DNA from: Polyangiales bacterium | GTDB taxonomy: Bacteria > Myxococcota_A > Polyangia > Polyangiales > Polyangiaceae | Assembly: GCA_038231275.1 (NCBI GenBank) | Contig: JBBRLQ010000011.1 | Location: 64,001-128,000 of the forward strand | Length of the DNA: 64,000 bases | Reading direction: 5' to 3' | In this document: positions 17,307 through 53,878 of the stretch, one piece after another | How the letters are laid out: the number at the start of each line of letters is the position of its first letter | Numbering within the stretch: the stretch's first letter is position 1 | Translations under genes and position numbers: made by a program | Notes under the pieces: generated by a model | The model's database searches: none | The model's input: only the letters and a program-made list of their open reading frames with translations | Told to the model about the DNA's origin: nothing

Positions 17307-17756
17307 ATGGGAATCATGGTGACGACGAAGGATGATCCGGCGCTCGAGGCCGCAGTCATGGACGCGACGATTGGGGCCTCGGACTCCGACGCGCCTCTCT
17401 CGGCAGACCGCCGCAACTCCGCCCGCTACGAAGTGAGCTGGTCGGTCGACTGCGTGGGGGACGACACGTTCCTCTTCGCGTCGATGGCGAACATCAGCGA
17501 GATGGGCATCTTCGTACTGACGACGGACCCGCTCGCGATCGGCACCAACATCATGCTCTCGTTCTCGCCGCCCGGTCACGAGCCGTTCAAGCTCGCCGGT
17601 CAGGTCACGTGGATCAACAAGGTCCGCCCGAACGGCGACAACCCCAACCCGGGGATGGGCGTCCGCTTCGTGAACCTGACGCCCGACGATCGCGAGCGCA
17701 TCGTCGAGGTCATCCGCGCGATTTGCTACCTCCGCCCCGGCAGCGCGCCGAGCTGA
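17307..17756 (+). CDS. Stand-alone PilZ domain protein (TIGR02266-like)
   Basis: RRNSARY (RxxxR) and NISEMG (N/DxSxxG) c-di-GMP motifs, PGMGVRF. Confidence 0.88.
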   Translation: MGIMVTTKDDPALEAAVMDATIGASDSDAPLSADRRNSARYEVSWSVDCVGDDTFLFASMANISEMGIFVLTTDPLAIGTNIMLSFSPPGHEPFKLAGQVTWINKVRPNGDNPNPGMGVRFVNLTPDDRERIVEVIRAICYLRPGSAPS

Positions 17757-22923: not shown

Positions 22924-22953
22924 TTGCAAGCTGTGAGCGCAGACGTCTAGACT
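22924..22953 (+). promoter_or_regulatory. Putative sigma70 promoter of the Glt-like operon
   Basis: TTGCAA(22924-29)-18nt-TAGACT(22948-53). Confidence 0.45.
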
Positions 22954-23044: not shown

Positions 23045-23944
23045 ATGCGTCACGCGAATCTTGCAGCCATTGCGTTCGTGGCTTCACTGGCTTTCTCGTT
23101 CTCTGCCGTCGCACAGCAGAAGGACGCTGGAGCTCCGAAGCCCAGGAAGGACGCAGGCGCGCCCTCCTCCGCGGCGGCTGCGGCGTCTGCGCCGAGCACA
23201 CCGACCGCTGCCGGCGGTGACGGCGGCGCGCCCGCGATGCCGATGCCGGTCGCCGGCGGTCCGTCGACGCCTTCGGACAAGCCGGTGATGGACGGGCCGA
23301 CCTACGCGGTGCGCCTGCGCGATCTCGAAGCGCGCGTCGACGAGCTCAAGGATCAAATTCGCCGAAGCCACACGCGCCTCGCGCTCCTCTCGGACACGAT
23401 CCTCGGCGGCGGCGCCGCGGGCTCGCGCTCGGAGGTCCAGTTCATGAACGAGATGTCGAGCGCGTTCCGCCTGACGAAGGCGCTCTTCGTCATCGACGGC
23501 ACGGTGCAATACAACCGCGCCGACGACACCGGCGCGCTCGCCGATCAGAAAGAGATTCCGATCTTCAGCGGCTCGATCCCGCCGGGCGATCACACCGTGC
23601 AGGTCCTCCTCAACTTCCAGGGCAACGGCTACGGCGTCTTCACCTACCTCCGCGGCTACAAGTTCGAAGTGAAGTCGAGCCACTCGTTCACGTCGGTCGA
23701 GGGCAAGACGCTCACGCTGACCGCGACGGCGCTCGAGAAGGGCGGCGTCACGACCGCGCTCGAGCAGCGTCCTGCGATCGAGTGGCACGAGAAGGTGCAA
23801 GCGCTCGGCGCGGGCTCTGGTCCCTCGGCGCCCGTCGCGCCAGGCGGGGCTCCCGGCACGCCTGGCGCAAGTGGCAACGTCAGTACGACGCCGAGCTCGG
23901 CTGCCGGGTCCATGTCGGTCGGCGGTGGGGGAGAAAAGAAGTGA
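23045..23944 (+). CDS. Exported coiled-coil + beta-sandwich protein, first gene of the Glt-like cluster
   Basis: Signal peptide ...SAVA/QQ; coiled coil YAVRLRDLEARVDELKDQI; PPGDHTVQV..GNGYGVFTYLRGY; ATG23045 after AGGGG. Confidence 0.8.
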   Translation: MRHANLAAIAFVASLAFSFSAVAQQKDAGAPKPRKDAGAPSSAAAAASAPSTPTAAGGDGGAPAMPMPVAGGPSTPSDKPVMDGPTYAVRLRDLEARVDELKDQIRRSHTRLALLSDTILGGGAAGSRSEVQFMNEMSSAFRLTKALFVIDGTVQYNRADDTGALADQKEIPIFSGSIPPGDHTVQVLLNFQGNGYGVFTYLRGYKFEVKSSHSFTSVEGKTLTLTATALEKGGVTTALEQRPAIEWHEKVQALGAGSGPSAPVAPGGAPGTPGASGNVSTTPSSAAGSMSVGGGGEKK

Positions 23945-26331
23945 AGACACGATCGCTTGCCCAGCTTGGTGCGAGCGCGCTGGTCTTCTTGCTCGCCCCG
24001 CACGCGTGGGCTGGCTCCGACGACGACGCGAATCACGCCCAGCAAGAGGTCGTCGCCGTCGACCGCGAGAGCGGCTCGGTCCAGGCCGCCATCCAGAAGG
24101 CGGCGGCGCAGAAGATGACCGCCGAGCAGCGCCTCGCCAACGGCGAGATGCTGTACCGCACGAAGGACTACTCGCGCGCCGGCGTCGTCTTCAGCGAGAT
24201 CATGGAGGAGTACCCCGATACTCCGAACTACCCCGACGCGCTCTGGCTGCGCGGCGAGACGTACTACGCGACCAAGGAGTACCTGTCGGCGCGCCGCGAC
24301 TACCGCGCGCTCGTCGATCGCGGGAGCGAGGCGCGCTTCCAGCCGTACTTCGGTAAAGCGCTCGCGCGTCTCGTCGACGTGTCCCTCCGCATCGGCGACA
24401 TCAAGGGGCTCGACGAGGTCTTCGCGAAGCTGAATCAGGTCCCGCCGTCGCAGGTCGACGCCGGCCTCAACTACGCCAAGGGGAAGGCCTATTACGCGAC
24501 CAAGGACTACGGCAACGCGATGTCGTCCTTGCAAGCGGTGCAGCCGAACACGCCGTACACGCACCAAGCCCGCTATTTCCAAGGCCTCGTGCAGATGAAG
24601 CAGGCCAAACCGGGCGCGACGTCGATCGGCCTCGATGGCCGCCCGAAGACCCAGCCGGCCAACTACAAAACCGCGATCGAGCAGTTCAAGCTCGTGACCG
24701 ATCTGCCGCCGGACAGCGACGACCACAAGCACGTGATCGATCTCTCGTGGATGGCGATCGGCCGCCTCTTCTACGAGATGGAGCAGTACCAGCAGGCGAG
24801 CGAGGCCTACGCGAAGGTCGGGCGCGACTCGCCCGAGTTCGACACGATGCTCTACGAGCTCGCGTGGGTGTACGTCCGCCTGGGAGACGTGCAGCGTGCA
24901 GAGCGCGCGCTCGAGGTCCTCTCGATTGCCGATCCGTCGAGCCCGTACGTGGGCGACGGCTCGCTCCTCCGCGCAGATCTTCTCCTCCGCGCCGGCGCCT
25001 TCGACAAGGCGCTCACCCTCTACGAGGGCGTCCGCGCCCAGTACGAGCCGATGCGCACGAAGGTCGACGCGTTCATGGACCAGAACTCCGACGTCCGCGT
25101 CTTCTACGACAAGCTGAGCCAGCAGCAGCTCGATACGCTCGATCAAAGCGAGCAGCTCCCGCCGTTGGCAATCCGCTGGGCGCGCGAGGCCGAGGACGGC
25201 CCCATGGCGTTTGCCGTCATCGACGACGTCCTCCAGTGCAAGACGCTCATCCGGCAGAGTAACCAGCTGATCGACAAGCTCACCGCGCTGACCGAGGCCT
25301 CGAACCGCGTTCGCGCGTTTCCGGAGCTCGCGGCAGGTGAGGAGAAGGCGCTCGGCCTCATCAACCGCATCTCGCGCGCGCGCGTCGAGATCGCGACCGG
25401 GCTCGACTCCGAGGAGCCGGGCGAGCTGTCGGGCGAGATCGGCGGCGTGCGCAAGCAACGGCGCGATCTCATGGCGACCATGACCGGCCTTCCGATCCAA
25501 TCGAAGGACTTCATCGATCGCGAGCAGCAGGGCGTGAGGCAGTGGAATGTCGTGAGCCAGGAGCTCACGCGTCGAAACCTCGAGATTGATCAGCTGCAAG
25601 CCGTCATCAACGGCCTTCGCCGCTGGCTCAAAGAAGACTCGCAGCGCGGCGTCGCCCGCGACGCGGCCTCGATCGAGCGCTTCAACACGGAGCTCGTCGA
25701 GAACGAGAAGCTCCTGAAGCAGTACCAGGCGCAGGTCGTGGAGCTCCGTCGTCAGGTGGAGTTCGGGCGCTTCCAGATCGGCATCGGCGACGCGCGCTTC
25801 CAGGCCGACGCGATGGGGCGCGTCCAGTTCCGCGACGTCCTCGATCGCGAGGTCCAGCTCGCGGTCGGCGGTCAGGCAGGTGCGAACGCGCAGCGCTACG
25901 GACAGCGCGTCCAGACCGTTCTCATGCAGGCGCGCAACGTCGAGGACAAGCTCGTCGCCGCGTTCGCGCAGCTCGAGCAGCAAGTCGGAATGCGCATCGG
26001 TGAGGTGCGCGCCAAGATCGACGCCGAGCGCGCGAAGATGGTCGGCTTCCAGACCCAGCTCGACGGGCTCGACGGCGAAGCGCGCCAGCTCGTCGGCGAG
26101 GTCGCGCGCCGCAACTTCGGCTACGTGCGCGACAAGCTCCGCGGCATCGTCCTCCGCGCCGACGTCGGCATCACCGAGCAGGCGTGGGAGGTCCGCGAAG
26201 AGGAGCTCGATCGCGTGCACAACCTGCAAGCCGAGCGCGCGCGGGAAGAGCAGCTCCTCGACGAAGAGCTGCGCGAAGTTCTCGACGATTCGGGGGATTC
26301 GTCCAAGGCGGCCACGCCGCCGGGCAAGTGA
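23941..26331 (+). CDS. Exported TPR + long coiled-coil protein (GltC/NfsC-like architecture)
   Basis: GTGA overlap; signal peptide HAWA; TPRs (YPDALWLRGETYY, MLYELAWVYVR); C-terminal coiled coil ending ADVGITEQAW. Confidence 0.8.
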   Translation: MKTRSLAQLGASALVFLLAPHAWAGSDDDANHAQQEVVAVDRESGSVQAAIQKAAAQKMTAEQRLANGEMLYRTKDYSRAGVVFSEIMEEYPDTPNYPDALWLRGETYYATKEYLSARRDYRALVDRGSEARFQPYFGKALARLVDVSLRIGDIKGLDEVFAKLNQVPPSQVDAGLNYAKGKAYYATKDYGNAMSSLQAVQPNTPYTHQARYFQGLVQMKQAKPGATSIGLDGRPKTQPANYKTAIEQFKLVTDLPPDSDDHKHVIDLSWMAIGRLFYEMEQYQQASEAYAKVGRDSPEFDTMLYELAWVYVRLGDVQRAERALEVLSIADPSSPYVGDGSLLRADLLLRAGAFDKALTLYEGVRAQYEPMRTKVDAFMDQNSDVRVFYDKLSQQQLDTLDQSEQLPPLAIRWAREAEDGPMAFAVIDDVLQCKTLIRQSNQLIDKLTALTEASNRVRAFPELAAGEEKALGLINRISRARVEIATGLDSEEPGELSGEIGGVRKQRRDLMATMTGLPIQSKDFIDREQQGVRQWNVVSQELTRRNLEIDQLQAVINGLRRWLKEDSQRGVARDAASIERFNTELVENEKLLKQYQAQVVELRRQVEFGRFQIGIGDARFQADAMGRVQFRDVLDREVQLAVGGQAGANAQRYGQRVQTVLMQARNVEDKLVAAFAQLEQQVGMRIGEVRAKIDAERAKMVGFQTQLDGLDGEARQLVGEVARRNFGYVRDKLRGIVLRADVGITEQAWEVREEELDRVHNLQAERAREEQLLDEELREVLDDSGDSSKAATPPGK

Positions 26332-29300
26332 GCGGACAAGTGAAAGCATTCATGAGGACGAGAGCTTCCTGGGGCATGCGTGGGATCTTCGGAGGCAGCA
26401 TCGTCGTCCTGACGGCGGCGCTGACCTTGTCGAGCGTGTCGGCGCAGCCGCGTCGTCCGGCGGCAGGTGCTGCAGCGGGAGGCGCAGGGAAGGCGGACGC
26501 GGGGAAGGCCCCGGCGCGCCCCGGAGGTCGACCCACCGGACGCGCAGGCGCTGCCGACGCGGGCGCGCCGATCCCGGTCGGCGTCGCGAACGCGTCCGAT
26601 GCTGGCGCTTCGACCGCTACGAACGACGAGGCGGGCACATCGTACACGACGGCGCAGATGGACACCGCCGCGCCGCAAGCGAGCGCGCGCGTCATCACGC
26701 CGCCTCCCCCTCCTCCTACGCCGCAGCAGGTCGCCGCCCTCGATGCGCTCCGCGCCGAGACCGATGCCTACGAGCAAGGCGCCAAGGAGTACCGCGACAC
26801 CGTCACCACGATCATCAAGCTCCACTACGAGGCGAAGAAGAAGGAGGTCCTGTCGGGCCTCGACCACGAGATCACCGTCGAGAAGGCGGAGCTGAAGAAG
26901 GCCCGCGAGATCGCGATCAAGCGCCTCGAGGAGTTCGTCGCCAAGTACAGCGGCCCCAACGCGCAGCCCGAGGCCACGCCCGACGCGATGTACCGCCTCG
27001 CCGCCCTCTACGAAGAGCGCGCGCGCTCAGAGGACGCCGTCGAGCCGATCGAGATCGGCCTCAAGCCCGCGATCGTCCTCTACAAGCGCGTCATCACAGA
27101 GTTCCCGCAGTACCGCGAGCTTGCCGGCATCTACTACTTCCTCGGCCACGCCTACAACGACTCGAGCCGCATCAACGAGGCGCAGCAAGTCTGGCGCTCG
27201 CTCGTCTGCCACAACAAATTCCCGTACCCGACTCCTCCCGATCCGAAAAATCCCGAGGCCGACTCGATCACGCCGCTGCCTCAGGATCACGACGAGGCGT
27301 ACTGGACGACGTGGCTAGCGCAGCACAACGACGCCAAGCGCTTCAGGAAGGGCGCCGGCGCCGACACGATGTACATCGACCCGTACCCCGCCGACTGCGC
27401 GGGCATTCCGCAGCCCGGCCTCCGCGCCGGCGAAGAGCCGAAGTACGTGGCCGAGATCTGGTGGCAGATCGGAAACTGGGAGTTCGACCAGCTCGATCTC
27501 GGCGGCGGCGTCGCGAAGGACGAGCCGAACGCCGCCTACGACTTCAACCGCGCCGCCAGCGCCTACACCAAGGCGATGCAGTTCAAGAAGCCGCCGCTCT
27601 TCGGCGTCAGCCTCTACAAGTACGCGTGGACGCTCTTCAAGCAGCAGCGCTACGAGGCCGCGACGAAAGAGTTCGTCCGCCTCCTCGTTTACACCGACGA
27701 GCAGCAGAAGCTGACCGGCGATCCCGGCGCCGACTTCCGCTCCGAGGCGTACACGTACATCGCCGGCTCGCTCACGAACGTCGACTTCAAGGGACCTGAT
27801 CCCGACGAACCGTACATCCAGCGGCCGGACATCATCGACACCGAGCCAAAGCCCGACGTCGCGGAGAGGAAACTCCACGTCGCCGTCGACCGCGTGAAAG
27901 ATCCCACGATCATCCCCCAGGACAAGCCCTGGACGATCGAGATCTACAAGGCGCTCGCCGACGAGTTCCGGAGCCTCAACCAGTTCGTCAACGCGGTCGA
28001 GGTCTACGACACGATCCTGAAGAAGTGGCCGATGGATCCGACGGCGCCGGACGTGCAGAACGCCATCGCCGAGACGTACGACCAGATGAACTTCACGCGC
28101 AAGCCGGGCACGCCCGAGCACGACGCGAACGCCAGCAAGGCGCTCGAAGCGCGGACGAAGCTCGCGAACTACATCGGCAACACGCCGTGGGTCGACGCGA
28201 ACAAGGACAACCCCACGGCGCTCCACAACGCCGAGCGCCTCGTGCGCGGCGGCCTCCGTCAGGCGGCCGTCCAGCACACGAACAACGGCAAGGCCGCCCT
28301 CGTCGCCGCCAGCTCCACGGGAGACGTCGCGCGCCAGGTCGAGCAGCTCTCGCGCGCGCAGGCGGAGTACCGTCTCGCCGCGCTCGGCTGGCTCGGCTTC
28401 CTGAAGCAAGACGAGAACGCCCCCGACGCGTACGAGAGCCGCTACTGGCTCGCCGACGCGCGTCACCAGCAGGTGCGCATCTCGGTCGTCCTCCACCAGG
28501 TGTCGCCGAAGCAGTTCGGCGAGCCGACGCGCAAGGACATCGACGAGGCGAAGGCCGCGGCGGTCGACGTGCGCGACTCGAACGAGGACGACAAGTTCCT
28601 CGACAACGCGGCGCTCTTCGTCGTCGACGAGTCGGACATCGATCGCGACCTTTCGTACACGCGCTTTACCGAGTCGAACGGCTCGCAGGGCGTCGAGAAG
28701 CGCGGCGAGCTGCGCTTCGACTCCGACGGCCCCGACAAGAAGGTCGTCGTCGACAAGGTCCCGCCGGTGGTCCAGCTCTCGATCCAGGCGCGCGACGAGT
28801 ACACTTCGCGCGTCCCCGAGCGCCTCGACGTCGCCAAGAACGGGATCCAGTACCAGTACTACATCGGCGAGACCTACTTCCTCTACGGCCAGTTCGAGCT
28901 GGCGCGCCAGCGCTTCGAACCGATGTGGAAGGACCACTGCAAGAAGGACGAGTACGGCTACAAAGCGTGGGAGAAGCTCATCACGATGAGCAACGCCATG
29001 CGCGACGCCGAGCGCTCGCGCGGCCTCGCCGAGGCCGAGAAGTCCAACTCGTGCGCCGTCACCGCGGAGCAGACCGCAGGCGCCGGCACGATCATCAACC
29101 CGACCTTGCAAGAGGCGGCGTACGTCGACGCGCGCAAGAAGTTCGAGAAGGCGTGCGAGGCCCCCGTCGGCTCGCCGTGCAAGAACCCGAACGCGCCCGA
29201 GAAGAAGCCCCTCTGGCGTGACGCGGCGGCCGCATACGGCGTCGCCCTCCAGGACGCGCCGGGCCGCGACGAGGCGCCGGAAGCGGCGATGAACTCCGCC

Positions 29301-30770
29301 TACGCCTACAAGCAGGTCGGCGACTACAACAAGGCGATCGAGCTCTACAACAAGTTCATCGCCGAGTACGGCAGCGAAGATCGCCTGACCAAGCTCGAGA
29401 AGGGCGACCCGAAGTCGAAGACCGCGCCCGAGCCCAAGAAATACGCAGAGCGCGTCAAGTACTTGTATGATGCATACGACGCGCTCTCGACCACCTACTA
29501 CTCGTTCTTCAACTACCAGCGCGCCGCCGAGTCGTACGACAAGATGGCGACCAGCCCGCGCTTCGACGAGACGAAGCGCAAGGTCGCCGCGCGCAACGCC
29601 ATCGTCCTTTTTGCCAGCATGGGCCAGAGGGACAAGATGGTCAGCGAGTACAAGACGCTGAACGGCCTTCACCCGAACCCCGAGGAGAAGGCGAACGCCG
29701 ACTTCCTGGTTGCCAACTACGACTACACGCAGTGGGACAGCAAGGGCGGCGACACGGGCAGTAACCGCGCGGCGCGCCTCGCGGCGGACGGTTCGCTCCA
29801 GACCTTCTACATGCAGCACCGCACCAAGCCCGAGGCGTCCAAGTACGCGCTCATGGCGGCGTACCAGGTCGGGCACATGAAGAAGGTGGTCGGCGATCCC
29901 ACGTACCGCACGTGGTTCAAGACGATCATCTCTGCGTGGGCGTTCATGTCGAAGAACGGCACCGCGGTAAAGGGCGCGAACGGCGCGACGCAGGCGGAGG
30001 CGCTCCAGCCCCCGTTCGTGGACTACGCCGCCGAGGCCGAGTTCACGCTCCTCGACGAGGAGATCGCCGACAAGTTCGACAAGAGCCCGAACCGCGCGCG
30101 CTACTGCGGCAGCCTCGACGAGGTGCTCGGCAAGTTCGACAAGAACGGCGGGCGCATCAGCCAGGGCAAGTACAACGCCGACGCGCTCATCGCCGACAAG
30201 TACGACAAGGAGCTCGATCGCATCGCGCGCACGTACCCGTCCGTCGAGTGGACCCCCGCCGCCATCGCGCGTCAGGGCTCGCTCTACGACGGCCTCCGCA
30301 CCGGCCTCTACAACACGACGACGGCCGGCGGTAAGGACAACTGCTTCAAGCTCTTCACCGCCCAGCAGGAGAACGTCCTGAAGACGATGGAGAACAGCGG
30401 CCGCGAGGCTCTGCAGAACCAGGCCGACGAGATCCGCTCGCGCGCGAAGGAGGGCTGGCGCTCCAAGAAGGAGAGCGAGCTCGCCGGGACCGACACGCTC
30501 ATGGTCCGCAAGTACTCGCAGTCGGTGTACCTCGGCCGCCGCTACAACGTGCGGAACGCCTGGGTGAACCGCGCGATCTCGAAGCTTGCATACTACACGG
30601 ACATCATCGGCGACGCGAAGATGAAGGACTACGTCACGTCGACGACCGATCCGACCGACGCGAGCAAGAAGCTCGACTACAAGGACCAGATGTACCCGCA
30701 GTCGCGTCCTGGCCTCGGCGCAACGCCTCCGCCCAACGGCGGCGCGTTGCCGCTCCCGGTGGCGCCGTGA
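26328..30770 (+). CDS. Very large exported TPR protein, GltD/AgmU-like
   Basis: Signal peptide; TPDAMYRLAALYEE, IYYFLGHAY, SLYKYAWTLFK, EAPEAAMNSAYAY, WTPAAIARQG; precedes GltE/F/G-like genes; start within 26328-26376. Confidence 0.75.
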   Translation: MSGQVKAFMRTRASWGMRGIFGGSIVVLTAALTLSSVSAQPRRPAAGAAAGGAGKADAGKAPARPGGRPTGRAGAADAGAPIPVGVANASDAGASTATNDEAGTSYTTAQMDTAAPQASARVITPPPPPPTPQQVAALDALRAETDAYEQGAKEYRDTVTTIIKLHYEAKKKEVLSGLDHEITVEKAELKKAREIAIKRLEEFVAKYSGPNAQPEATPDAMYRLAALYEERARSEDAVEPIEIGLKPAIVLYKRVITEFPQYRELAGIYYFLGHAYNDSSRINEAQQVWRSLVCHNKFPYPTPPDPKNPEADSITPLPQDHDEAYWTTWLAQHNDAKRFRKGAGADTMYIDPYPADCAGIPQPGLRAGEEPKYVAEIWWQIGNWEFDQLDLGGGVAKDEPNAAYDFNRAASAYTKAMQFKKPPLFGVSLYKYAWTLFKQQRYEAATKEFVRLLVYTDEQQKLTGDPGADFRSEAYTYIAGSLTNVDFKGPDPDEPYIQRPDIIDTEPKPDVAERKLHVAVDRVKDPTIIPQDKPWTIEIYKALADEFRSLNQFVNAVEVYDTILKKWPMDPTAPDVQNAIAETYDQMNFTRKPGTPEHDANASKALEARTKLANYIGNTPWVDANKDNPTALHNAERLVRGGLRQAAVQHTNNGKAALVAASSTGDVARQVEQLSRAQAEYRLAALGWLGFLKQDENAPDAYESRYWLADARHQQVRISVVLHQVSPKQFGEPTRKDIDEAKAAAVDVRDSNEDDKFLDNAALFVVDESDIDRDLSYTRFTESNGSQGVEKRGELRFDSDGPDKKVVVDKVPPVVQLSIQARDEYTSRVPERLDVAKNGIQYQYYIGETYFLYGQFELARQRFEPMWKDHCKKDEYGYKAWEKLITMSNAMRDAERSRGLAEAEKSNSCAVTAEQTAGAGTIINPTLQEAAYVDARKKFEKACEAPVGSPCKNPNAPEKKPLWRDAAAAYGVALQDAPGRDEAPEAAMNSAYAYKQVGDYNKAIELYNKFIAEYGSEDRLTKLEKGDPKSKTAPEPKKYAERVKYLYDAYDALSTTYYSFFNYQRAAESYDKMATSPRFDETKRKVAARNAIVLFASMGQRDKMVSEYKTLNGLHPNPEEKANADFLVANYDYTQWDSKGGDTGSNRAARLAADGSLQTFYMQHRTKPEASKYALMAAYQVGHMKKVVGDPTYRTWFKTIISAWAFMSKNGTAVKGANGATQAEALQPPFVDYAAEAEFTLLDEEIADKFDKSPNRARYCGSLDEVLGKFDKNGGRISQGKYNADALIADKYDKELDRIARTYPSVEWTPAAIARQGSLYDGLRTGLYNTTTAGGKDNCFKLFTAQQENVLKTMENSGREALQNQADEIRSRAKEGWRSKKESELAGTDTLMVRKYSQSVYLGRRYNVRNAWVNRAISKLAYYTDIIGDAKMKDYVTSTTDPTDASKKLDYKDQMYPQSRPGLGATPPPNGGALPLPVAP

Positions 30771-32173
30771 GAGGCACGATGATGAAACGAGGCGCTACCA
30801 GGACCGTGTTGGTCCTCGCGGCCTTGGCGTCTGGCGGCGCGTACGCGTCACTGGGCGCCGGCTGCGGCGGTGACGACAAGAAGGTCGAGTACCCGAAGGC
30901 GACGAACGACGCGGGGACCGTCGACCAAGGCACCGCCGTCAACACCGACACCGGCCAGACCGTCGGCGTGACCGGTGGCCCCGACGCGCACTCCGATCTG
31001 ACGGGCGCCGCGAAGGTGTCGTACGACAAGGGCTTCCAGGCCTGGATCCGCGGAGATCTGGCGGGCGCGAAGGCGGGCTTCCAGGAGGCGGCGTCCTCAG
31101 CGCCCACTTCGGCGGCGCCGCACTACTCGCTGGGGTGCGTCTACGATCGCCAGGGCGAGTACTCGTCGGCGCAGCAGGAGTACCGGAAGGCGCTGGACAT
31201 CAAGAGCGACTACGAGCTCGCGATGGGCGGCTACGCGATGAGCCTCGCGACGAGCGGGCACGCGGGCGAGGCCGACACGTTCCTCGCCGACAAGCGCGCG
31301 AAGATGCCGAACTCGGCGCGCGTCGCCACCTACCTCGCCGAGGTCAAATCGATCGAGAAGGACTCGGGCAGCGCGCAGCAGATCGCGCAAGACGCGCTCC
31401 GCCTCGACCCGGACTACAAAGACGCGATGGTCACGATCGCGCGCGATCACTACCGCGCGCGCCGCATGGAGCTCGCGAAGTACGCCATCCAGGCCATCCT
31501 GGACGGCTTCGGCGACGTGAGCCCGCCGCGCGATCCGACGAACGCCGAAGCGCATTTGCTCCGCGGCCTCATCTACAAGGAGACCGGGTTCCGCCAGGGC
31601 GCGTTCAAGGATTTCGAGGCGGCGGTCGCCAAGCGCCCGGACATGGTCGAGGCGCTCATCCAGCTCGGCGTCATGAAGCTCGAGGCCGGCAACAGCGCCG
31701 AGGCCGTCCCGCTCCTCGAGGCCGCGACCAAGTTCGGACCCAAGAGCTCGCTCGCGCACTTGAACCTCGGCGACGGGTATCGCCTCGCGGGCCGCCCCGC
31801 CGACGCGAAGAAGGAGTTCGATCAAGCGCTGGCGATGGACTCGTCCCTCGCGGTCGCGCACTACGATCTCGGCCTCCTCTACCTCTTCTCGTCCAACATC
31901 CCCGGCACGACGGCGAAAGACCAGGTCGACACCGCCATCAAGGAGCTCAACACCTTCAAGACCATGCGCGGTCCGAAGGCGCCGCCGGGTCAAGCGGACG
32001 ACGTGGACGAGCTCATCAACCGCGCGAACGCGAAGAAGGCGGAGCTCAACTTGCCGCCCCCCGCCGCGCCGCCCCCGGCCGCTCCGCCTGCCGCTGCTGC
32101 TCCGGCCGCGGGCGCCCCCGCCGCGGGCGCGCCCAAGCCTGCCGGCAGTGGTATCGTGAGGGACATGCCATGA
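30767..32173 (+). CDS. TPR lipoprotein, GltE/AglT-like
   Basis: Lipobox LGAGC; multiple TPRs (AHLNLGDGYR, AHYDLGLLYL); Pro/Ala tail. Confidence 0.78.
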   Translation: MRGTMMKRGATRTVLVLAALASGGAYASLGAGCGGDDKKVEYPKATNDAGTVDQGTAVNTDTGQTVGVTGGPDAHSDLTGAAKVSYDKGFQAWIRGDLAGAKAGFQEAASSAPTSAAPHYSLGCVYDRQGEYSSAQQEYRKALDIKSDYELAMGGYAMSLATSGHAGEADTFLADKRAKMPNSARVATYLAEVKSIEKDSGSAQQIAQDALRLDPDYKDAMVTIARDHYRARRMELAKYAIQAILDGFGDVSPPRDPTNAEAHLLRGLIYKETGFRQGAFKDFEAAVAKRPDMVEALIQLGVMKLEAGNSAEAVPLLEAATKFGPKSSLAHLNLGDGYRLAGRPADAKKEFDQALAMDSSLAVAHYDLGLLYLFSSNIPGTTAKDQVDTAIKELNTFKTMRGPKAPPGQADDVDELINRANAKKAELNLPPPAAPPPAAPPAAAAPAAGAPAAGAPKPAGSGIVRDMP

Positions 32174-32412
32174 AGAAGCTCATCGTCGGAACTCTCGCAC
32201 TCGTCGCCATCGGTCTCGCGTCGCCGAACGCCGACGCCCAGGAAAAAAAGGGCGGCGTCATCACGATCGGCGAGGTCACGATCGTCGGGCGCGTCCAGAA
32301 ACCGATCGCGTCGGTGGATGTGAGCAAGATCCAACCAAAGCTCACTCTCGCCGAGCTCAGGCAACCGTTTCTGGATCGCATCGAGGAAGCGACGATGCAT
32401 GATCCTTTCTGA
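32170..32412 (+). CDS. Small exported protein, GltF/CglF-like (copy 1)
   Basis: ATGA overlap; 80 aa; signal peptide; EVTIVGRVQKP motif; ends DPF. Confidence 0.72.
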   Translation: MKKLIVGTLALVAIGLASPNADAQEKKGGVITIGEVTIVGRVQKPIASVDVSKIQPKLTLAELRQPFLDRIEEATMHDPF

Positions 32413-32557
32413 GCGCTAAAACGCGCTCAGAGAAGGATTCCTTTGTTTGGTGGGGCCGAAGGCCCCCTCATCGCTGCTCGCGATGAGCCTCCCCCCTTCG
32501 CCGAAAGGCGAAGCGCGCGGGGCGCGCGGCGGGCTTGGAGGTTAGATTTCGAGGACG

Positions 32558-32791
32558 ATGCAATTCGCGAAGACGATCGTGGTCGTTGGGGCGCTGATGG
32601 CCGTGGCGCCGGTGGCGGGGGCGGAGGACGCGACGCCGGGGCGGACGACCGTGAAGGTCGTTACGGTGGTCGGGAATCCGCGGCGGCCGAGCGTGACGAT
32701 CGAAGTGACGAAGCAGAAGCTGAACATACCGCTGCACGAGATGAAGCATCCGCTCGATGAGAAGGCCGTGACCTCGTCGGGACCGTTCTGA
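32558..32791 (+). CDS. Small exported protein, GltF/CglF-like (copy 2)
   Basis: GAGGA SD; 77 aa; signal peptide; VVTVVGNPRRP motif; ends GPF. Confidence 0.65.
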   Translation: MQFAKTIVVVGALMAVAPVAGAEDATPGRTTVKVVTVVGNPRRPSVTIEVTKQKLNIPLHEMKHPLDEKAVTSSGPF

Positions 32792-32827
32792 CGGATTCGC
32801 CGCCGGGTTTTCTGGTATCGGTCACGC

Positions 32828-33418
32828 GTGCTGCCGACCGTCGCGGCGATCGTCGTTCTCGCGTGCATTTGGGCGAGCCTTGCTCGACTGCGTCGCGCGA
32901 TCGCGCCGACGGCGATCGATCCGGCGCCGCTGATGGAAGCACTGCGCGGTGATGCGGGTCGCGAGCGGTACGCCGATCTCTGCGCGCAGATCGCCGAGGA
33001 TCCCGACGCCGACTGGGAGCGCGAGCTCGTGCACGCGTTCGAGAAGCGAGGCGACGAGCGCGTCGCGCGGATCAACGAGCTGCTCCTGGATCTCGATCAT
33101 CTGGTGACCTCCGGAGCCCGCGTCCCGCGCGTGTGCGCGAGCATCGCGGCGACGACGGGGTTCCTCCTCGCGTCGCTCGCGCTGAGGAGAGGCCTTGGGG
33201 TCGCGACCGATCTGCCGCTCGAGGTGCAGGACCTCGCGATTCACCAAGCTGTGCGCGATGGCATCGACGTCGCCGCGGTGGGGATATGTGGGGCTGTGTT
33301 CTGCGTCACGGTCGGGATGCGCGCCGCCAAGGCCGCCAAAGCGCGCCTCCGCGCGACCGATCAGCTCGTCGAACGGATGGAGGCGCTTGCCCCTCCGGAC
33401 CCTGCCGCAAGCACGTAA
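32828..33418 (+). CDS. Three-TM membrane protein, degenerate MotA/TolQ/ExbB (AglR)-like
   Basis: TM1, ~80 aa soluble loop, TM2 ASIAATTGFLLASL, TM3 GIDVAAVGICGAVFC, helical tail. Confidence 0.55.
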   Translation: MLPTVAAIVVLACIWASLARLRRAIAPTAIDPAPLMEALRGDAGRERYADLCAQIAEDPDADWERELVHAFEKRGDERVARINELLLDLDHLVTSGARVPRVCASIAATTGFLLASLALRRGLGVATDLPLEVQDLAIHQAVRDGIDVAAVGICGAVFCVTVGMRAAKAAKARLRATDQLVERMEALAPPDPAAST

Positions 33419-33571
33419 AATCCTCTTTCAGCACGCCCCCTTGCCCGTGCTACGCTCGCACCGTCGCGCCGTGCGCGGATTTGTTGGGAACTTATGCACG
33501 CTACGGCACTCTAAGCCGTCACACCTGAGTCCCGAGCTTTCGTACGCCGTTCTCTCTTGGAGCCCGCGAAC

Positions 33572-34969
33572 ATGAATCAGCCTCCCGGCATGCAGCAGAG
33601 TTCAGGTCGCCCCGGTCAGATGACCGCCGTCATGCGCGCCATGACGATGGCGACGGGCCCGAAGGTCCTGCGCATCGGCTTGGTGCACGGCGGTCGCGTC
33701 ATCGAAGAGCGCATCATCAAGCAGCGCACGACGGTGACCGTGGGCTCGAGCGAGAAGGCGATGTTCGTGGTTCCGGCGCAGTCGGTTCCGGCGCAGTTCA
33801 AGCTCTTCGAGCTCGTCGGCAGCGACTACTACCTGAACTTCGTCGACGGCATGACCGGCCGCGTCGCCCTCGCGACCGGCATCAGCGACATCACGGCGCT
33901 CAAGGGACAAGCGAAGCGCGTCGGCAACGCGTACCAGATTCGACTGACGGACGAGGCGCGCGGCAAGGTCGTCGTCGGCGAGACGACGTTCCTCTTCCAG
34001 TTCGTCGCGCCGCCGCCGATTCAGCCGCGCCCGCAGCTCCCGCTCGCCGTCAAAGGCGGCCTCGCGAGCCAGATCGACTGGACGCTCACGATCATCGCGG
34101 CGTTCAGCTTCATGCTGCACTTCGGCGTCATCGGCGCGATGTACTCGGACTGGATGGATCCGGTCCTCAACGAGGACATGACGATCGCCGGGCTCATCGA
34201 TCTCGCGAAGAACGTCCCGCCGCCCGTCGTCGAGGACGAGGCGAAGCCCGCCGACACCGGCCCCTCCGACAAGAACGACAAGCCCGCGCCCGCCGCCGCG
34301 AAGGCCGCCGCTCCGTCCTCCAAGCCTGGCGCCGTCAGCGACGCGAAGGCCGCGGCCCTCGCGCAGCAAGCCGAGGCGATGCAGATGCAGATGCTCGCCG
34401 CGTTCGGAGGAAACTCCGCGGTGCAGGGCGCGCTCAACCGAAGCGACATTCCGCCCGTTGATCTCTCCGGCGCGGCCGCGAGCGGTGCGGGTGTCAGCAA
34501 CACCGGCGGCAACCTCAACCTCGGCTCCGGCGGCGCGCCGGTGCAAGGCGGGCGCGGCGGCTCCGGCCTCGCCGGCATTGGCGGCTCGACGACCGGGGGC
34601 GCCAACACCGGCGCAGGCACCGGGCGCGACGTCGGCGGTCCGAAGGGCGACGCGCAGATCGGCGGCACGAGCGCGACGGTGCCCGTCAACAACGCCGAGC
34701 GCGTCGTCGCCGGCCTCCGCGCGAAGTTCCGGTCTTGTTACAACACCGGCCTCCAGTCCGATCCGACGATGCAGGGCGCGGTCACCATCTCCGCGAAGAT
34801 CGCGCCGAACGGCGAAGTGTCGTCCGCTGACATCGCGAGCAACAGCGGCCTCAGCGCATCGGTCGCGAGCTGCATCGCCCGCGCGGTCCGCAACGCAAAC
34901 TTCGACGCCCCCGGCGGCACGGGGTCGACGATCAACATCCCGGTCAAGTTCGTCCAGCAGGGCAAGTAG
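33572..34969 (+). CDS. GltG/PglI-like TonB/TolA-type energy transducer
   Basis: FHA-like N-terminal beta domain, TM with SxxxH (FSFMLHF), Gly-rich linker, TonB_C-like end (FRSCYNTGL..DPTMQGAV...VASCIARAV...INIPVKF); ATG33572 after GGAG. Confidence 0.82.
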   Translation: MNQPPGMQQSSGRPGQMTAVMRAMTMATGPKVLRIGLVHGGRVIEERIIKQRTTVTVGSSEKAMFVVPAQSVPAQFKLFELVGSDYYLNFVDGMTGRVALATGISDITALKGQAKRVGNAYQIRLTDEARGKVVVGETTFLFQFVAPPPIQPRPQLPLAVKGGLASQIDWTLTIIAAFSFMLHFGVIGAMYSDWMDPVLNEDMTIAGLIDLAKNVPPPVVEDEAKPADTGPSDKNDKPAPAAAKAAAPSSKPGAVSDAKAAALAQQAEAMQMQMLAAFGGNSAVQGALNRSDIPPVDLSGAAASGAGVSNTGGNLNLGSGGAPVQGGRGGSGLAGIGGSTTGGANTGAGTGRDVGGPKGDAQIGGTSATVPVNNAERVVAGLRAKFRSCYNTGLQSDPTMQGAVTISAKIAPNGEVSSADIASNSGLSASVASCIARAVRNANFDAPGGTGSTINIPVKFVQQGK

Positions 34970-35213
34970 CCGGACGACGGGCAGCAAGCTCTCGCGGAGA
35001 CCGACGGATCTGCCGTGCGGTCCTCGTGAATGCTTCCATGCGCCCCCGCAACGTACCGGACGGTGCGATCCGCATCCGATTCAGGCACGGCTCCGGCGGT
35101 CCGTTCGCGTCTTCGGGGGGTACGGGGTCCTCGCAGCGCGCTCGGTGTGAGGCAAATGGGGACAACTGCCCCGACTCCCGGAAATCACTAGGTAATTGGC
35201 TGATCTTCGATCA

Positions 35214-35242
35214 TTGACACGCCCCGTCACGCTCTATAGAGT
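35214..35242 (+). promoter_or_regulatory. Near-consensus sigma70 promoter of the barrel/OPX unit
   Basis: TTGACA(35214-19)-17nt-TAGAGT(35237-42). Confidence 0.65.
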
Positions 35243-35267
35243 CCGTAGGCTCGGAAGGGTAGATGCA

Positions 35268-35897
35268 ATGCGTCTTCGCCAAAACTTGAAGCATTTTAGG
35301 TGGGTCATCACAGTCGCCGTTCTCGCGTACGCCGTCTCGCCCGGTGGCGCCGGCGCACAGCCCGCGACGGCTCCGACTGGACCCGCCGGTGGTGGCGCAA
35401 CCGCCGCAGGATCGACGGATGCGCAGGTCGGCTTCCAGCGGAAGACGCAGCTCACCCCGCAGGAGCAGCTGGTCGAAGGCGACCGCTCGATCCAGCGCAT
35501 GGAGCAAGCCGCGGCTGGCGTCCGCAAGCAGCTTCAGGGGGCGCGCGAGGCGCGTGACGTCGTGAAGACGCTCTGCCTCAATGACAAGCTCTCGCAGATC
35601 GACGTCGCGACGCGCTCGGCGCGGGACCGCAAGTCGTCGCTGCAAGCCGCGGCGACGCGCAACGACACCGAGCTCTCGAACCACGAGTTCACGATCCTGA
35701 CGGTTCTCCGGCAGCGCGCGGAGCAGTTGACCGCAGAGGCGAACCAGTGCATCGGCGAGGAAGCGGCCTTCATCGGCGACACCAAGGTCACGACCACGGT
35801 GGACCCGACGCTCCCTGCCTCCGACGACACGCAGTTTCCCCCTACGGACCCCACGCTCATCAGTGGTCCGCCGCAGTGCACGAGCTGTGAACGCTGA
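35268..35897 (+). CDS. Exported helical/coiled-coil protein with Cys pair and C-terminal CxxC
   Basis: Signal peptide; TLCLNDKL...EANQCIGEE; ends CTSCER. Confidence 0.75.
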   Translation: MRLRQNLKHFRWVITVAVLAYAVSPGGAGAQPATAPTGPAGGGATAAGSTDAQVGFQRKTQLTPQEQLVEGDRSIQRMEQAAAGVRKQLQGAREARDVVKTLCLNDKLSQIDVATRSARDRKSSLQAAATRNDTELSNHEFTILTVLRQRAEQLTAEANQCIGEEAAFIGDTKVTTTVDPTLPASDDTQFPPTDPTLISGPPQCTSCER

Positions 35898-36040
35898 AGA
35901 TCGACTCCTCTAAAAACACGACGGGCTGAACCAAAACAGCAACCGGCGCGCGGGCGAAGAAGTCGCATCCCCGAGCTGCCACCAGAGGCGGGGCGTACCC
36001 GTCTACCACGACGAAGCGCGCGCACACTGGCGGACATGAG

Positions 36041-37489
36041 ATGAATCGTAGACTACGGAAGATTGGGGGAGCTTGGCGGGTGGGACTTCCACTCGCGGGG
36101 CTGCTGTTCGCGTCCTCGTTCACCCGAAGCGCCGACGCGCAGGAGTGGCTGAAGGACCGGCGGTTCGCGGAGGGTGCGGGGTATCGCGCGGGCGACCTGG
36201 AGCTCCACCCCGGCCTCGGCGGTGAAATCGGTTACGACTCGAACTGGTTCCTTCGGTCGGACAAGAATGCCGTGGGCATCGTCAATGGCCCCCCGGCCGT
36301 GCCCGTCACCAGCGGCGGCGTCCTCAGAGTGACCCCGTCGCTCTCGGTCTCGACCCTCGGTCCCCAGCGGAACACGCTGGCGCCTGGCGAGGGTCCCTCG
36401 GTTTCGTTCCGTGGCGGCATCGCGGCGACGTACCGGGAGTTCATCGGCGTCCAGGAGCTTCGCGATCAGCGCAATCTTTCGGGTCACGCCGACGCCCGTG
36501 TCGACATCCTGCCCGGACGGCCGTGGAGCTTTGGCATCCACGGGCTGTACGACCGCACCATCCAGCCGACCGTACTTGGGAACCCTGACCTCTCGTTCAA
36601 CCGAGACACGCTCGCGATTGGCGGCGAGATCATCGCGACCCCCAACAGCGGAACGCTCGACTGGCGGCTCGGCTACCAGATCCAGGGCGCGCTCTTCGAG
36701 AGCTCGAACGGCACTCCATTCAACAACGTTACGCACGTGATCAACACGAAGGGGCGCTGGAAGTTCCGGCCTCGCACGGCGTTCCTTTACGACGGAAGCA
36801 TCGGATTCGTCGGCTACACGCAGGCGCAGCGTGCGATCAACTCGCTCCACGATTCATCGCCCACGCGCGCGCGACTCGGCATGACGGGACTCATCACGCC
36901 GCGCCTCGCGATTCTTGGGATGGCGGGGTGGGGTGCGAGCTTCTATCGGCCCGGCGGAGATCCGCGGGTATCCCAATACGACAGCGTCATCGGGCAAGCA
37001 GAGCTCAAGTTCTTCCCGACGGCGAACGCCGCGGGTGGCGACGTGAGTGATGCGTCGCTCACGCTCTCCTCCATCGCGATTGGCTATGTGCGCGATTACC
37101 AGAACAGCTACTTCAGCGATTTTTACGGGAGCGACCGCGGCTACGCGAAGGTGGCCTATTTCTTCGCGGGGCGCGCGCTCATCTCTTTGGAAGGCGGCGT
37201 CGGCGCCATCGAGTACCCGGATGTTTACATCAACCCGGGCGGAGCCACCCCGGGCGGTGGTGGCGCGGGGGGCCTGGTCCACTCGAAGTTCACCGACGTG
37301 CGCCTCGACGGAACTCTGTTCGCCGAATACCGAGTGCTCGATTCGCTCGGCATTAACACGACGTTCAACTACATTCAGAACTTCAGCAACACCCAGTTCA
37401 ATGTCGATACCGGAAACGGGAACACCGGCGTCTACGACATGAGCTGGAAGCGCTTCCAGGCCTCGCTCGGCGTTCGCTGGTTCCTCTAG
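36041..37489 (+). CDS. Outer-membrane beta-barrel of polysaccharide export (EpsX/ExoB/Wzp-like)
   Basis: Signal peptide; ELHPGLGGEIGYDSN N-terminal motif; alternating strands; C-terminal SLGVRWFL; directly upstream of OPX genes. Confidence 0.8.
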   Translation: MNRRLRKIGGAWRVGLPLAGLLFASSFTRSADAQEWLKDRRFAEGAGYRAGDLELHPGLGGEIGYDSNWFLRSDKNAVGIVNGPPAVPVTSGGVLRVTPSLSVSTLGPQRNTLAPGEGPSVSFRGGIAATYREFIGVQELRDQRNLSGHADARVDILPGRPWSFGIHGLYDRTIQPTVLGNPDLSFNRDTLAIGGEIIATPNSGTLDWRLGYQIQGALFESSNGTPFNNVTHVINTKGRWKFRPRTAFLYDGSIGFVGYTQAQRAINSLHDSSPTRARLGMTGLITPRLAILGMAGWGASFYRPGGDPRVSQYDSVIGQAELKFFPTANAAGGDVSDASLTLSSIAIGYVRDYQNSYFSDFYGSDRGYAKVAYFFAGRALISLEGGVGAIEYPDVYINPGGATPGGGGAGGLVHSKFTDVRLDGTLFAEYRVLDSLGINTTFNYIQNFSNTQFNVDTGNGNTGVYDMSWKRFQASLGVRWFL

Positions 37490-37518
37490 AGGCCTCGCGG
37501 CGTCGTCGCGGAGAGTCG

Positions 37519-38121
37519 ATGGTTCGGGTCGTTCGCTTTGCGCTCCTGGCGCTCGTGCTCTGCGTGACGGTCGGGTGCCGTGGGTCGCGTCCGCCGCCGC
37601 CCAAGAACCTGCCTGCGGCGACGCAGAGCACCACCGTGGGGCCGGGTGACGTTTTCGAGGTCTATGTCCTCGGCGAGACGAACCTGCCGAAGGAGTACCG
37701 CGTCCAGCCGGACGGGACGATCGACTTTCCCTACATCGATCGGCTCTCCGTGACCGGCCTCGAGCCTCAGGACATCGTCAATCAGCTCAAGGCGAAGCTG
37801 ATCGAGAAGAAGATCCTGTCGAACCCGCAGGTCTCCCTGATCGTCAAACAGTACAACTCGAAGAAGGTCAGCGTCATCGGGCAGGTGGCGAAGCCCGGCA
37901 GCATCCCGTGGACCGAGGGCATGAAGCTCGTCGACGCCATCGGGCTCTCCGGGTGGTTCACGAACATCGCGGACAGCAACCACATCATCCTCACGCGCCA
38001 CATCGCCAAGGAGAAGACCGTCACGGTCACCGTGAGCGTCGACGCGATCACCGACGGCGCGCAGGCCGACATCCCGCTCCAGGCGGGGGACACGATCAAG
38101 GTCGAATCGCGCGTCTTCTGA
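37519..38121 (+). CDS. Short OPX (Wza-like) polysaccharide export lipoprotein, Poly_export + one SLBB, copy 1
   Basis: Lipobox TVGC; GPGDVFEVYV, RVQPDGTIDFPYI, VSVIGQVAKPG, LQAGDTIKV; no C-terminal OM helix. Confidence 0.92.
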   Translation: MVRVVRFALLALVLCVTVGCRGSRPPPPKNLPAATQSTTVGPGDVFEVYVLGETNLPKEYRVQPDGTIDFPYIDRLSVTGLEPQDIVNQLKAKLIEKKILSNPQVSLIVKQYNSKKVSVIGQVAKPGSIPWTEGMKLVDAIGLSGWFTNIADSNHIILTRHIAKEKTVTVTVSVDAITDGAQADIPLQAGDTIKVESRVF

Positions 38122-38162
38122 TTCGTTCGAACGCGCGAGGCCGCGCGCGCCACACATGGGGC

Positions 38163-38762
38163 GTGCGAACCACCTCTCTTGCCTCCGCCGCCCTCTTCGT
38201 CCTCACTGCCGCCTCCGGGTGCCGCGGCGCACGGCCAGGACCGCCCACCACGCTGCCCGCGGCGACGGCGAGCACCACGCTCGGCGCGGGGGACGTGTTC
38301 GAGGTGCACGTGCTCGGCGAGCAGAACCTGCCCAAGGAGTACCGAGTGCAGCCAGACGGGAGCATCGATTTTCCGTACATCGAGCGGCTCCAGGTGAGCG
38401 GGCTGGAGCCGCACGACGTCGTGCGCGTCCTCAAAGGCAAGCTCATCGAAAACAAGATCCTGACGGACCCTCAGGTGTCGCTGGTGGTGAAGCAGTACAA
38501 CTCGAAGAAAATCAGCGTCATCGGGCAGGTGGCGAAGCCGGGAAGCGTGCCGTGGACCGAGGGGATGCGCCTCGTCGACGCGCTAGGGCAGTCGGGGTGG
38601 TTCACGAACATCGCCGACAGCGATCACGTCGTCCTGACGCGTCGCAGCGGCGCGAAGACGGTGACCGCGAGGGTCAGCGTCGATGCGATCACCGACGGAG
38701 CGCAGTCCGACGTGCCGCTCCAGGCCGGCGACACGGTTAAAGTCGAGGCGCGCGTGTTTTAG
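38163..38762 (+). CDS. Short OPX polysaccharide export lipoprotein, copy 2
   Basis: GTG38163; lipobox ASGC; same motifs as copy 1. Confidence 0.9.
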   Translation: MRTTSLASAALFVLTAASGCRGARPGPPTTLPAATASTTLGAGDVFEVHVLGEQNLPKEYRVQPDGSIDFPYIERLQVSGLEPHDVVRVLKGKLIENKILTDPQVSLVVKQYNSKKISVIGQVAKPGSVPWTEGMRLVDALGQSGWFTNIADSDHVVLTRRSGAKTVTARVSVDAITDGAQSDVPLQAGDTVKVEARVF

Positions 38763-53859: not shown

Positions 53860-53878
53860 GGCGGTTCTCCTTTCGTCG

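Follow-up and report, generated by a model that had tools for sequence, protein, structure and literature searches.

Conserved Glt-like genes beside a WzpB/WzaB-type polysaccharide translocon in Polyangia

The window analysed here is a 64,000-nucleotide (64-kb) stretch from a Polyangiales bacterium (positions 64,001 to 128,000 of contig JBBRLQ010000011.1), with a G+C content of approximately 68%. Its plus strand carries, at 23045–38762, a block of twelve co-oriented genes, here denoted P1–P12, in which relatives of the Glt gliding proteins of Myxococcus xanthus are followed by an outer-membrane β-barrel and two outer-membrane polysaccharide export (OPX) lipoproteins. The arrangement is far beyond what chance would give. 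Its parts are of known kinds, and the cluster has already been catalogued, the Glt-like part together with the M. xanthus paralog cluster G4. The reading that we favour, at slightly less than an even chance, is that the block is the Polyangia G4 Glt-like complex standing beside a WzpB/WzaB-type translocon, where it acts as an accessory, motor-coupled handler of the polymer and not as an essential part of the pore.

The genes were delimited from a plot of G+C at third codon positions in each frame (GC3 frame plot) and from the translations, and this returned the same twelve envelope genes at the same coordinates as the first-pass annotation, which had been made from the sequence alone. From P1 to P5, stop and start codons either overlap by 4 bp or lie about 20 bp apart; wider gaps, of 146, 154, 299 and 144 bp, precede P6, P8, P9 and P10, respectively. 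Six of the proteins (P1, P5, P6, P7, P9 and P10) match no Pfam or NCBIfam family.

Related loci were collected by a profile scan with a 9-sequence P8 alignment, taking one genome per species. The scan returned 182 relatives, of which the best 80, all from Polyangia, were kept; they include Labilithrix, Sorangium, Chondromyces, a metagenome-assembled genome (MAG) labelled Nannocystis and many Polyangiaceae MAGs. Flanks were searched by tblastn, for which 61 loci were informative downstream (at least 5.2 kb beyond P8) and 49 had the full upstream flank. P9, the barrel and OPX follow P8 in the same orientation in 61/61 loci with enough downstream sequence, and the adjacency to barrel and OPX that had been proposed at first pass is therefore conserved; by locus tags it extends to M. 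xanthus (see below). Upstream, the counts are 44/49 for P1, 47/49 for P2, 48/49 for P3, 47/49 for P4 and 48/49 for P5. The order P1 to P11 is repeated in the related genomes; in the Sorangium loci L064 and L065, for example, orthologs of P1–P5 and P8–P11 stand in order, together with a P7-like open reading frame (ORF) detected with a hidden Markov model (HMM), and the protein lengths agree with those published for the sce genes. In the P8 tree the window groups with locus L001, near Labilithrix.

The flanks of the block are more variable. An asparaginase gene follows the OPX gene in 35/54 loci and cysK is near in 25/54, while 10/54 loci (Sorangium/Chondromyces type, with P8 identities of 51–56%) have neither of these genes, differ in their flanks and keep the whole block. 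Since the block is intact where the flanks differ, its conservation is more than general conservation of gene order. No Wzx, Wzy, Wzc, glycosyltransferase or polysaccharide biosynthesis genes were found beside OPX in the window or in the seven examined loci with such differing flanks. In-frame stops occur in P2/P9 orthologs of the MAG loci L044, L027 and L069; they are probably assembly errors or pseudogenes, and these rows were left out of the alignments.

The 299-bp spacer between P8 and P9 contains a σ70-type promoter sequence, TTGACA-N17-TAGAGT, at 35214–35242 (+ strand; a 10/12 match in the scan). The pattern TTGACN-N16–18-TANNNT recurs in this spacer in 67/71 loci; in shuffled sequences it turned up in 0.2 loci on average and in 2/71 at most, and coding controls of the same length gave 0/47. 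With a conserved promoter before P9, the export unit P9–P12 has a promoter of its own and, as far as sequence can tell, the block is two transcription units, P1–P8 and P9–P12, and not one.

The first unit opens with P1 (23045–23944; 299 aa), an exported protein with a signal peptide, an Ala/Pro-rich stretch, a segment that by eye is heptad-like and resembles a coiled coil, and a β-rich C-terminal part. Its nearest Atlas clusters are confined to Myxococcota, and some of them carry the automatic name ‘dihydrolipoamide acetyltransferase’. The P1 stop overlaps by 4 bp the start of P2 (23941–26331; 796 aa), a periplasmic protein with Pfam matches to tetratricopeptide repeats (TPR) and a long, conserved, helical C-terminal half. 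Of the named NCBIfam models GltC scores highest with P2 (70.8 bits; cut-off 450), and by size and position P2 fits both sce5945 of Sorangium (802 aa, a GltC homolog) and MXAN_1923 of M. xanthus (809 aa). P3 (26352–30770, with an alternative start at 26328; 1472 aa) has generic TPR matches alone and matches no Glt model at E ≤ 10; it is called GltD-like here from its position, its size and the fact that Luciano 2011 counts sce5944 (1431 aa) among the GltD homologs.

P4 (30779–32173; 464 aa) is a TPR lipoprotein, GltE-like, whose signal peptide end reads LGAGC, with the cysteine directly after the signal peptide. The GltE model gives it 76.7 bits against a cut-off of 225 and ranks below the generic TPR lipoproteins PilW and PrsT. 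Its stop overlaps by 4 bp the start of P5 (32170–32412; 80 aa), a small exported, GltF-like protein whose Sorangium ortholog has 82 aa, like sce5942, one of the listed GltF homologs. A second small exported, GltF-like protein, P6 (32558–32791; 77 aa), is a distant paralog of P5 (30% identity, pairwise E 4e-5). P6 was found by tblastn in 10/80 loci, and in several of them it is located before the P5 ortholog rather than after it. P5 and P6 were also considered as TolR-like proteins; this was excluded by their sizes of 80 and 77 aa, their cleavable-looking signal peptides and the lack of an Asp in the hydrophobic segment.

P7 (32828–33418; 196 aa), an inner-membrane protein that had been described simply as having three transmembrane (TM) segments, is predicted to have the fold of the TolQ/ExbB/MotA stator A subunits. 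An AlphaFold2 (AF2) model built on 47 orthologs has a mean predicted local distance difference test score (pLDDT) of 94.6 and the layout TM1, cytoplasmic helical domain and TM2–TM3 hairpin. The top Foldseek matches of the model in the PDB are ExbB, MotA, TolQ and PomA; ranks 1–10 and most of the later ranks are stator A subunits, and the best TM-scores are 0.70/0.64 to Acinetobacter baumannii TolQ (9avi) and 0.65 to Escherichia coli TolQ (8odt). Two hints, each weak but independent of the other, point the same way: the sole PDB match of the P7 sequence profile is MotA (6ysl), at E 0.46, and a P7 homolog of Pendulispora bears the UniRef name ‘MotA/TolQ/ExbB proton channel domain-containing’. 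The P7-family HMM finds an ORF between P5 and P8 in 66/70 loci, and in two of the four loci without a match the interval is too short to hold the gene. A search for longer proteins found no fused or longer forms of P7, which is weak evidence.

The P7 gene is followed by that of P8 (33572–34969; 465 aa), a GltG-like transducer of the TonB/TolA type. Residues 20–454 of P8 match the NCBIfam GltG model with 108.5 bits against a cut-off of 650, and the alignment covers model positions 189–638 only; P8 thus lacks the first FHA part. In the Agl-Glt model (Commun Biol 2025), positions 189–638 of GltG span the membrane-adjacent FHA domain, the TM helix, the linker and the TonB-C-like domain. In P8 a cytoplasmic domain precedes the one TM helix, and a low-complexity periplasmic linker connects this helix with a TonB-C-like end of the AgmX/PglI type. 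The single hydrophobic segment of P8 is at 172–190, and D169, S179 and H183 of the TM region are invariant in 42 orthologs, which bears out the S-x3-H motif that had been noticed in the sequence. The C-terminal domain, annotated as TonB_C at first pass, scores 60 bits with the AgmX/PglI model (myxo_SS_tail, NF033768), above the cut-off of 40, and reaches E 0.0017 against PDB TonB chains, whereas Pfam TonB_C, at 19.6 bits, stays under its cut-off of 24.6. The P8 family comprises 502 representative clusters at E ≤ 1e-30. The machine may be energised by the proton-motive force, as proposed at first pass.

The scores of the Glt equivalog models are far under their cut-offs, indicating that P2, P4 and P8 are paralogs of the gliding proteins and not the gliding set itself. 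This agrees with the initial assignment to a Glt/Nfs-type paralog set distinct from the canonical gliding Glt; Sorangium has a separate, larger Glt-like cluster. Nor were outer-membrane proteins of the GltA/B/H/K types seen, as had been stated for GltA/B/H: P10, of the WzpB type, is the only barrel in the block, with the qualification that the coverage of GltA/B/H by NCBIfam is uncertain.

The export unit opens with P9 (35268–35897; 209 aa), an exported and mostly helical protein in which two cysteines, C103 and C161, are conserved without exception across 35 orthologs; its Atlas neighbours are Myxococcota-only clusters named ‘secreted’ or ‘hypothetical’. P10 (36041–37489; 482 aa) is modelled by AF2 as an outer-membrane barrel of approximately 18 long strands (pLDDT 82.6, predicted TM-score 0.79). 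Foldseek aligns it with generic outer-membrane barrels, including AlgE and PgaA, and it has no PDB sequence match at E ≤ 1. The N-terminal 40 or so mature residues (about 31–72; 36131–36256) are the best conserved part of P10, with 12/34 invariant columns at residues 34–72, and are modelled at moderate confidence (pLDDT 55–71); they could be a docking or plug segment.

The last two genes, P11 (37519–38121; 200 aa) and P12 (38163–38762; 199 aa), encode Class-3 OPX lipoproteins, a tandem duplicate with 74% identity. Each has a Cys after the signal peptide, and the Poly_export domain and one SLBB domain, both above the Pfam cut-offs, fill the protein, with no Wza_C helix. The barrel and the two OPX lipoproteins named at first pass are the barrel and OPX genes described here. 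The top PDB match of P11 is 9N9A, at 105.9 bits (54 bits for E. coli Wza), and P12 scores 89.9 bits against the same entry, which the depositing paper identifies as M. xanthus sWzaB; the EpsY (WzaX) model gives P11 65 bits against a cut-off of 320. Tandem OPX genes are also present in L001 (14039–15253) and L039 (14006–15192), that is, in 2/61 informative loci. The two window copies resemble each other more closely than they do either copy of L039, which makes the duplications look independent or homogenised.

The published classification points to the same pair. In the Labilithrix luteola locus (L034) the orthologs of P10 and P11 have 484 and 214 aa. Saidi 2022 lists Labilithrix_luteola_peg_7661 (484 aa) as a homolog of MXAN_1916 (WzpB) beside a Class-3 ‘LIPO’ OPX, peg_7662 (214 aa), and that listing also gives analogous WzpB-type/Class-3 OPX pairs for Sorangium and Chondromyces. 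Since these lengths are identical, the barrel and OPX described here are of the WzpB/WzaB type by published classification. WzaB has been shown to bind WzpB through the C-terminal Phe203-Phe204, and the co-polymerase WzcB through Arg106-Arg107 (Mellouk 2026). P11 ends in RVF, and 58/64 OPX copies end in [R/K]-[V/L/I/A]-F, with one Phe where WzaB has two. At the place of Arg106-Arg107, P11 has S-N and P12 has T-D (HMMER alignments to 9N9A), and an Arg-Arg pair occurs at the aligned place in 0/64 OPX copies of the block, the motif being one defined in M. xanthus WzaB. To judge from these residues, the porin-docking end looks kept and the known docking loop for the polysaccharide co-polymerase (PCP) does not.

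The Glt-like genes have published counterparts as well. Luciano 2011 distinguishes several Glt paralog clusters in M. xanthus, namely G3, which is nfs (MXAN_3371–3378), G4 (MXAN_1919–1923) and G5 (MXAN_1327–1331), and states that G4 and G5 are of unknown function. For Sorangium, it gives sce5945 (802 aa) as GltC-like, sce5944 (1431 aa) as GltD-like, sce5943 (449 aa) as GltE-like, sce5942 (82 aa) as GltF-like and sce5940 (511 aa) as GltG-like, with sce5941 unassigned; the separate, larger Glt-like cluster of this organism is sce2906–2921, together with sce2991–2996. WzpB and WzaB are MXAN_1916 and MXAN_1915, and the cluster two genes away from them is therefore G4. The first-pass annotation had placed a ‘G3’ paralog near wzpB/wzaB, which has to be corrected to G4. 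Its description of the system as undescribed was likewise too strong, as the Glt-like part was catalogued in 2011 (G4, sce5940–5945) and the barrel/OPX pair was classed in 2022. The link from the window to M. xanthus G4 is made by published locus tags, by protein lengths and by the WzpB-type class of the barrel, and by these tags the G4 genes too are near wzpB/wzaB. The gene mxan_1915 has been called ‘orphan-like’, as it is 1.016 Mbp from the remaining genes of the biosurfactant polysaccharide (BPS) (Islam 2020). In Sandaracinus, by contrast, wzaB is reported to adjoin the BPS genes, and in M. xanthus a rise in BPS gene expression late in development has been reported.

It can be proposed how such an accessory handler would work. 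By analogy with the AglR5QS-GltG, GltD, GltF and GltC architecture (Commun Biol 2025), P7 would form a ring in the inner membrane with P8 placed against it; the linker and TonB-like end of P8 would bind both the GltD-like and the GltF-like proteins, and P2, the GltC-like member, would reach the outer membrane. There the place of GltA/B/H/K would be taken by the porin/OPX translocon, by P9 or by the exported polymer. The machine may then position, pull, spread or release a BPS-like polysaccharide at or after the pore, as Agl-Nfs, which handles a Wza-exported spore-coat polymer, does on its substrate; synthesis of the polymer would fall to a Wzx/Wzy pathway whose genes lie in another part of the genome. 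Functional coupling of the Glt-like and export units, which this scheme presumes, is what their conserved adjacency suggests.

Several observations weigh against this proposal. The Foldseek E-values for P7 are weak (0.02–0.07, with no match at or below 1e-3), P7 lacks a MotA_ExbB sequence signature detectable with Pfam or NCBIfam, and the called genes of the window include no TolR-, ExbD- or AglQ/S-like protein, although the motor could be encoded elsewhere. In M. xanthus G4 there is no numbered gene between MXAN_1920 and MXAN_1919, which is the place of P7. The 80 loci were selected by likeness to P8 and are all from Polyangia, and inherited gene order may account for some of the adjacency, as asparaginase also trails OPX in 35/54 loci. 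Because their promoters are separate, the two units need not be co-expressed. Finally, a polar insertion in MXAN_1922 is stated to leave motility unaffected ‘at any appreciable level’, the legend of Figure S5 citing soft-agar twitching insets (Luciano 2011), unlike BPS-pathway mutants, which show swarm-spreading defects (Islam 2020; Mellouk 2026). Such normal motility speaks against the machine being essential for BPS export.

The main rival is that the adjacency joins two unrelated neighbours in an inherited order, the G4 complex having some other envelope function and P9, the porin and OPX being the orphan outer-membrane end of a Wzx/Wzy pathway. We regard this as unlikely, although it keeps a substantial share of the probability. 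The separate and strongly conserved promoter before P9, the general synteny seen in the trailing asparaginase and the lack of an appreciable motility phenotype in the polar MXAN_1922 mutant would all be expected from it, and WzaB, WzpB and WzcB have been described as sufficient for BPS export in a paper in which ‘Glt’, ‘TonB’ and ‘Nfs’ occur 0 times. It accounts less well for the survival of the adjacency between differing flanks in 10/54 loci and, by locus tags, in the distant class Myxococcia. In addition, in the window as in M. xanthus the OPX/porin pair is kept with G4 and not with genes for biosynthesis, and the Glt-like unit is without an outer-membrane component of its own.

A bolder version of the coupled reading is, in our view, somewhat less likely still. 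Here the G4-type clusters would be a third functional class of Glt-like machine, in which a TolQ-fold ring and a GltG-like transducer are coupled through the TPR scaffold to the porin and OPX, so that the polymer is moved, gated or paid out by membrane energy. As the Polyangia OPX proteins have lost the PCP-binding motif, the Glt-like scaffold may replace or supplement the contact with Wzc. If true, this would also explain why M. xanthus wzaB and wzpB are 1 Mbp from the BPS genes: they would have stayed with the machine.

It is improbable, to a still greater degree, that P7 and P8 form an energised export gate, working like TolQ-TolA or ExbB-TonB, in which the proton-motive force opens or drives the WzpB-type porin and export depends on the Glt-like proteins. 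The TonB-type TM motif and TonB-C-like end of P8, the TolQ/ExbB fold predicted for P7 and the conservation of the porin in its N-terminal ~40 residues, a possible docking segment, are in keeping with such a gate. Class-3 OPX proteins are without a gating loop of their own, gating by the porin has been proposed by the authors of the WzaB structure, and the title of a preprint reports closed resting-state gates in these porins. However, the motility of the polar MXAN_1922 mutant is normal, the window encodes no TolR/ExbD-like proton-carrying partner nearby, no TonB box was identified, and in the Agl-Glt model the TonB-like end of GltG binds GltD and GltF and not an outer-membrane barrel. That the block is the canonical Agl-Glt gliding machinery of the organism, as the C-D-E-F-G gene order and the matches to Glt models might suggest, is very improbable and was rejected on scores and gene content: the scores are 4 to 6 times under the equivalog cut-offs, the block has no GltA/B/H/K, GltI/J or AglRQS genes, Sorangium has a separate, larger Glt-like cluster (sce2906–2921, together with sce2991–2996), and the M. 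xanthus G4 mutant glides normally.

To our knowledge, Agl-Glt and Agl-Nfs are the sole studied examples of this class of surface motor. The function of G4 and G5 has been open since 2011, and the conserved link between G4 and WzpB/WzaB offers a concrete hypothesis that is testable in M. xanthus. Such a link would join Glt-type motors and Class-3 OPX export, which are unconnected in the searchable papers, and the combination of a TolQ-fold P7 with an OPX that is without the Wzc-binding motif suggests that there is more than a single way to build the envelope-spanning connection. No paper linking G4 to wzaB/wzpB was found in the searchable literature, a 2015 review of capsule biogenesis and surface motility lying outside that scope, and MXAN_1917–1921 and MXAN_1923 occur in no searchable paper except the supplement of Luciano 2011. 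We did not find in print the G4–WzpB/WzaB linkage, the stator fold of P7, the membership of P1 and P9, the promoter of P9 or the missing Arg-Arg loop.

Upstream of the block lie the housekeeping genes prs, L25, pth, S6/S18/L9, dnaB, der and era, and downstream of it asparaginase and cysK. Neither Wzx, Wzy or Wzc nor a TolR/ExbD homolog is found by Pfam or NCBIfam among the called genes of the window, and Rfam and tRNA scans of the window gave no matches. Divergent from P1, on the minus strand, are an extracytoplasmic function (ECF) sigma factor at 21887–22501 (PRK12513, 236.7 bits, above the cut-off) and a zf-HC2 anti-sigma factor at 20332–21810. An ECF sigma gene is also directly upstream of P1 in L007 and L015, the two loci whose flank clearly reaches there, and the sigma factor may regulate the P1–P8 operon. 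About 90 nt 5′ of the P1 start, at 22925–22953, there is a weaker σ70-like match, TTGCAA-N17-TAGACT, under the scan threshold.

Further away, 14342–17756 encodes a membrane protein of 964 aa, which has a PMT_2 (ArnT-like glycosyltransferase) domain, and then a PilZ-domain protein (TIGR02266); two Chondromyces-type loci, L079 and L075, also have PMT_2 proteins, located a few kb from the block on its downstream side. On the minus strand at 51014–53268, two neighbouring ORFs match a fused major facilitator superfamily (MFS)/spermidine-synthase family, the second in its membrane part only, and the two may be a split or duplicated gene. At 53281–58125, on the same strand, lies a group of redox and lipid genes, namely DUF3501, a GlpC-like Fe-S protein, rubrerythrin, a PerR-like regulator and a fatty acyl-AMP ligase.

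Compared with known systems, the block combines features of several. From TolQRA and ExbBD-TonB it differs in having no TolR/ExbD in the window, in the missing MotA_ExbB signature of P7 and in a target that is neither a TonB-dependent transporter nor Pal; the likeness is in the placing of a TolQ/ExbB-fold gene beside a single-pass S-x3-H protein with an extended linker and a TonB-C-like domain. The WzaB-WzpB-WzcB system (Saidi 2022; Schwabe 2022; Mellouk 2026) similarly has a short OPX lipoprotein beside a barrel of approximately 18 strands, and the terminal Phe is present in 58/64 OPX copies of the block. The tail in the window has a single Phe (R-V/L-F) in contrast with Phe-Phe, the Arg106-Arg107 pair is found in 0/64, the window is without PCP, Wzx and Wzy genes, and its OPX genes are in tandem.

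The Agl-Glt machinery, as modelled in Commun Biol 2025, shares with the block a GltG-like protein with a domain before the TM helix, a long linker and a TonB-C-like end, as well as a GltD-like pillar, a GltE-like lipoprotein, a GltF-like small protein and a GltC-like connector; in that model AglR5 corresponds to a TolQ5-like ring. It differs in that the block is without GltA/B/H/K/CglB, GltI/J and AglQ/S, that P8 is without the first FHA part, and that all equivalog scores are below their cut-offs. In Agl-Nfs, a Glt paralog set of the C, D, E, F and G types acts on a polysaccharide that exits by the Wza-type exporter ExoA/ExoB (WzaS/WzpS); a TolQR-like motor drives this set by way of a GltG-type protein. 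Nfs, however, has its own outer-membrane proteins NfsA, B and H and borrows AglRQS, while the window block is without the A/B/H types and carries a private TolQ-fold protein. The tags of nfs (MXAN_3371–3378) and exoA/B (MXAN_3225/3226) are also far apart, whereas in the window OPX and porin are adjacent to the Glt-like genes.

The nearest counterparts are M. xanthus G4 and the sce cluster of Sorangium. The 2011 catalogue did not count P1 and P9 in the cluster, and the window differs further by its duplicated OPX and by a second gene of the GltF-like kind. A TolQ-fold gene stands between the GltF-like and GltG-like genes in the window and in 66/70 Polyangia loci, where the M. xanthus numbering leaves no slot. 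The gene order is otherwise the same and the sizes are near-identical, at 796/1472/464/80/465 aa in the window, 802/1431/449/82/511 aa in Sorangium and 809/1111/490/91/447 aa in M. xanthus, and a WzpB-type barrel and a Class-3 OPX lie close downstream.

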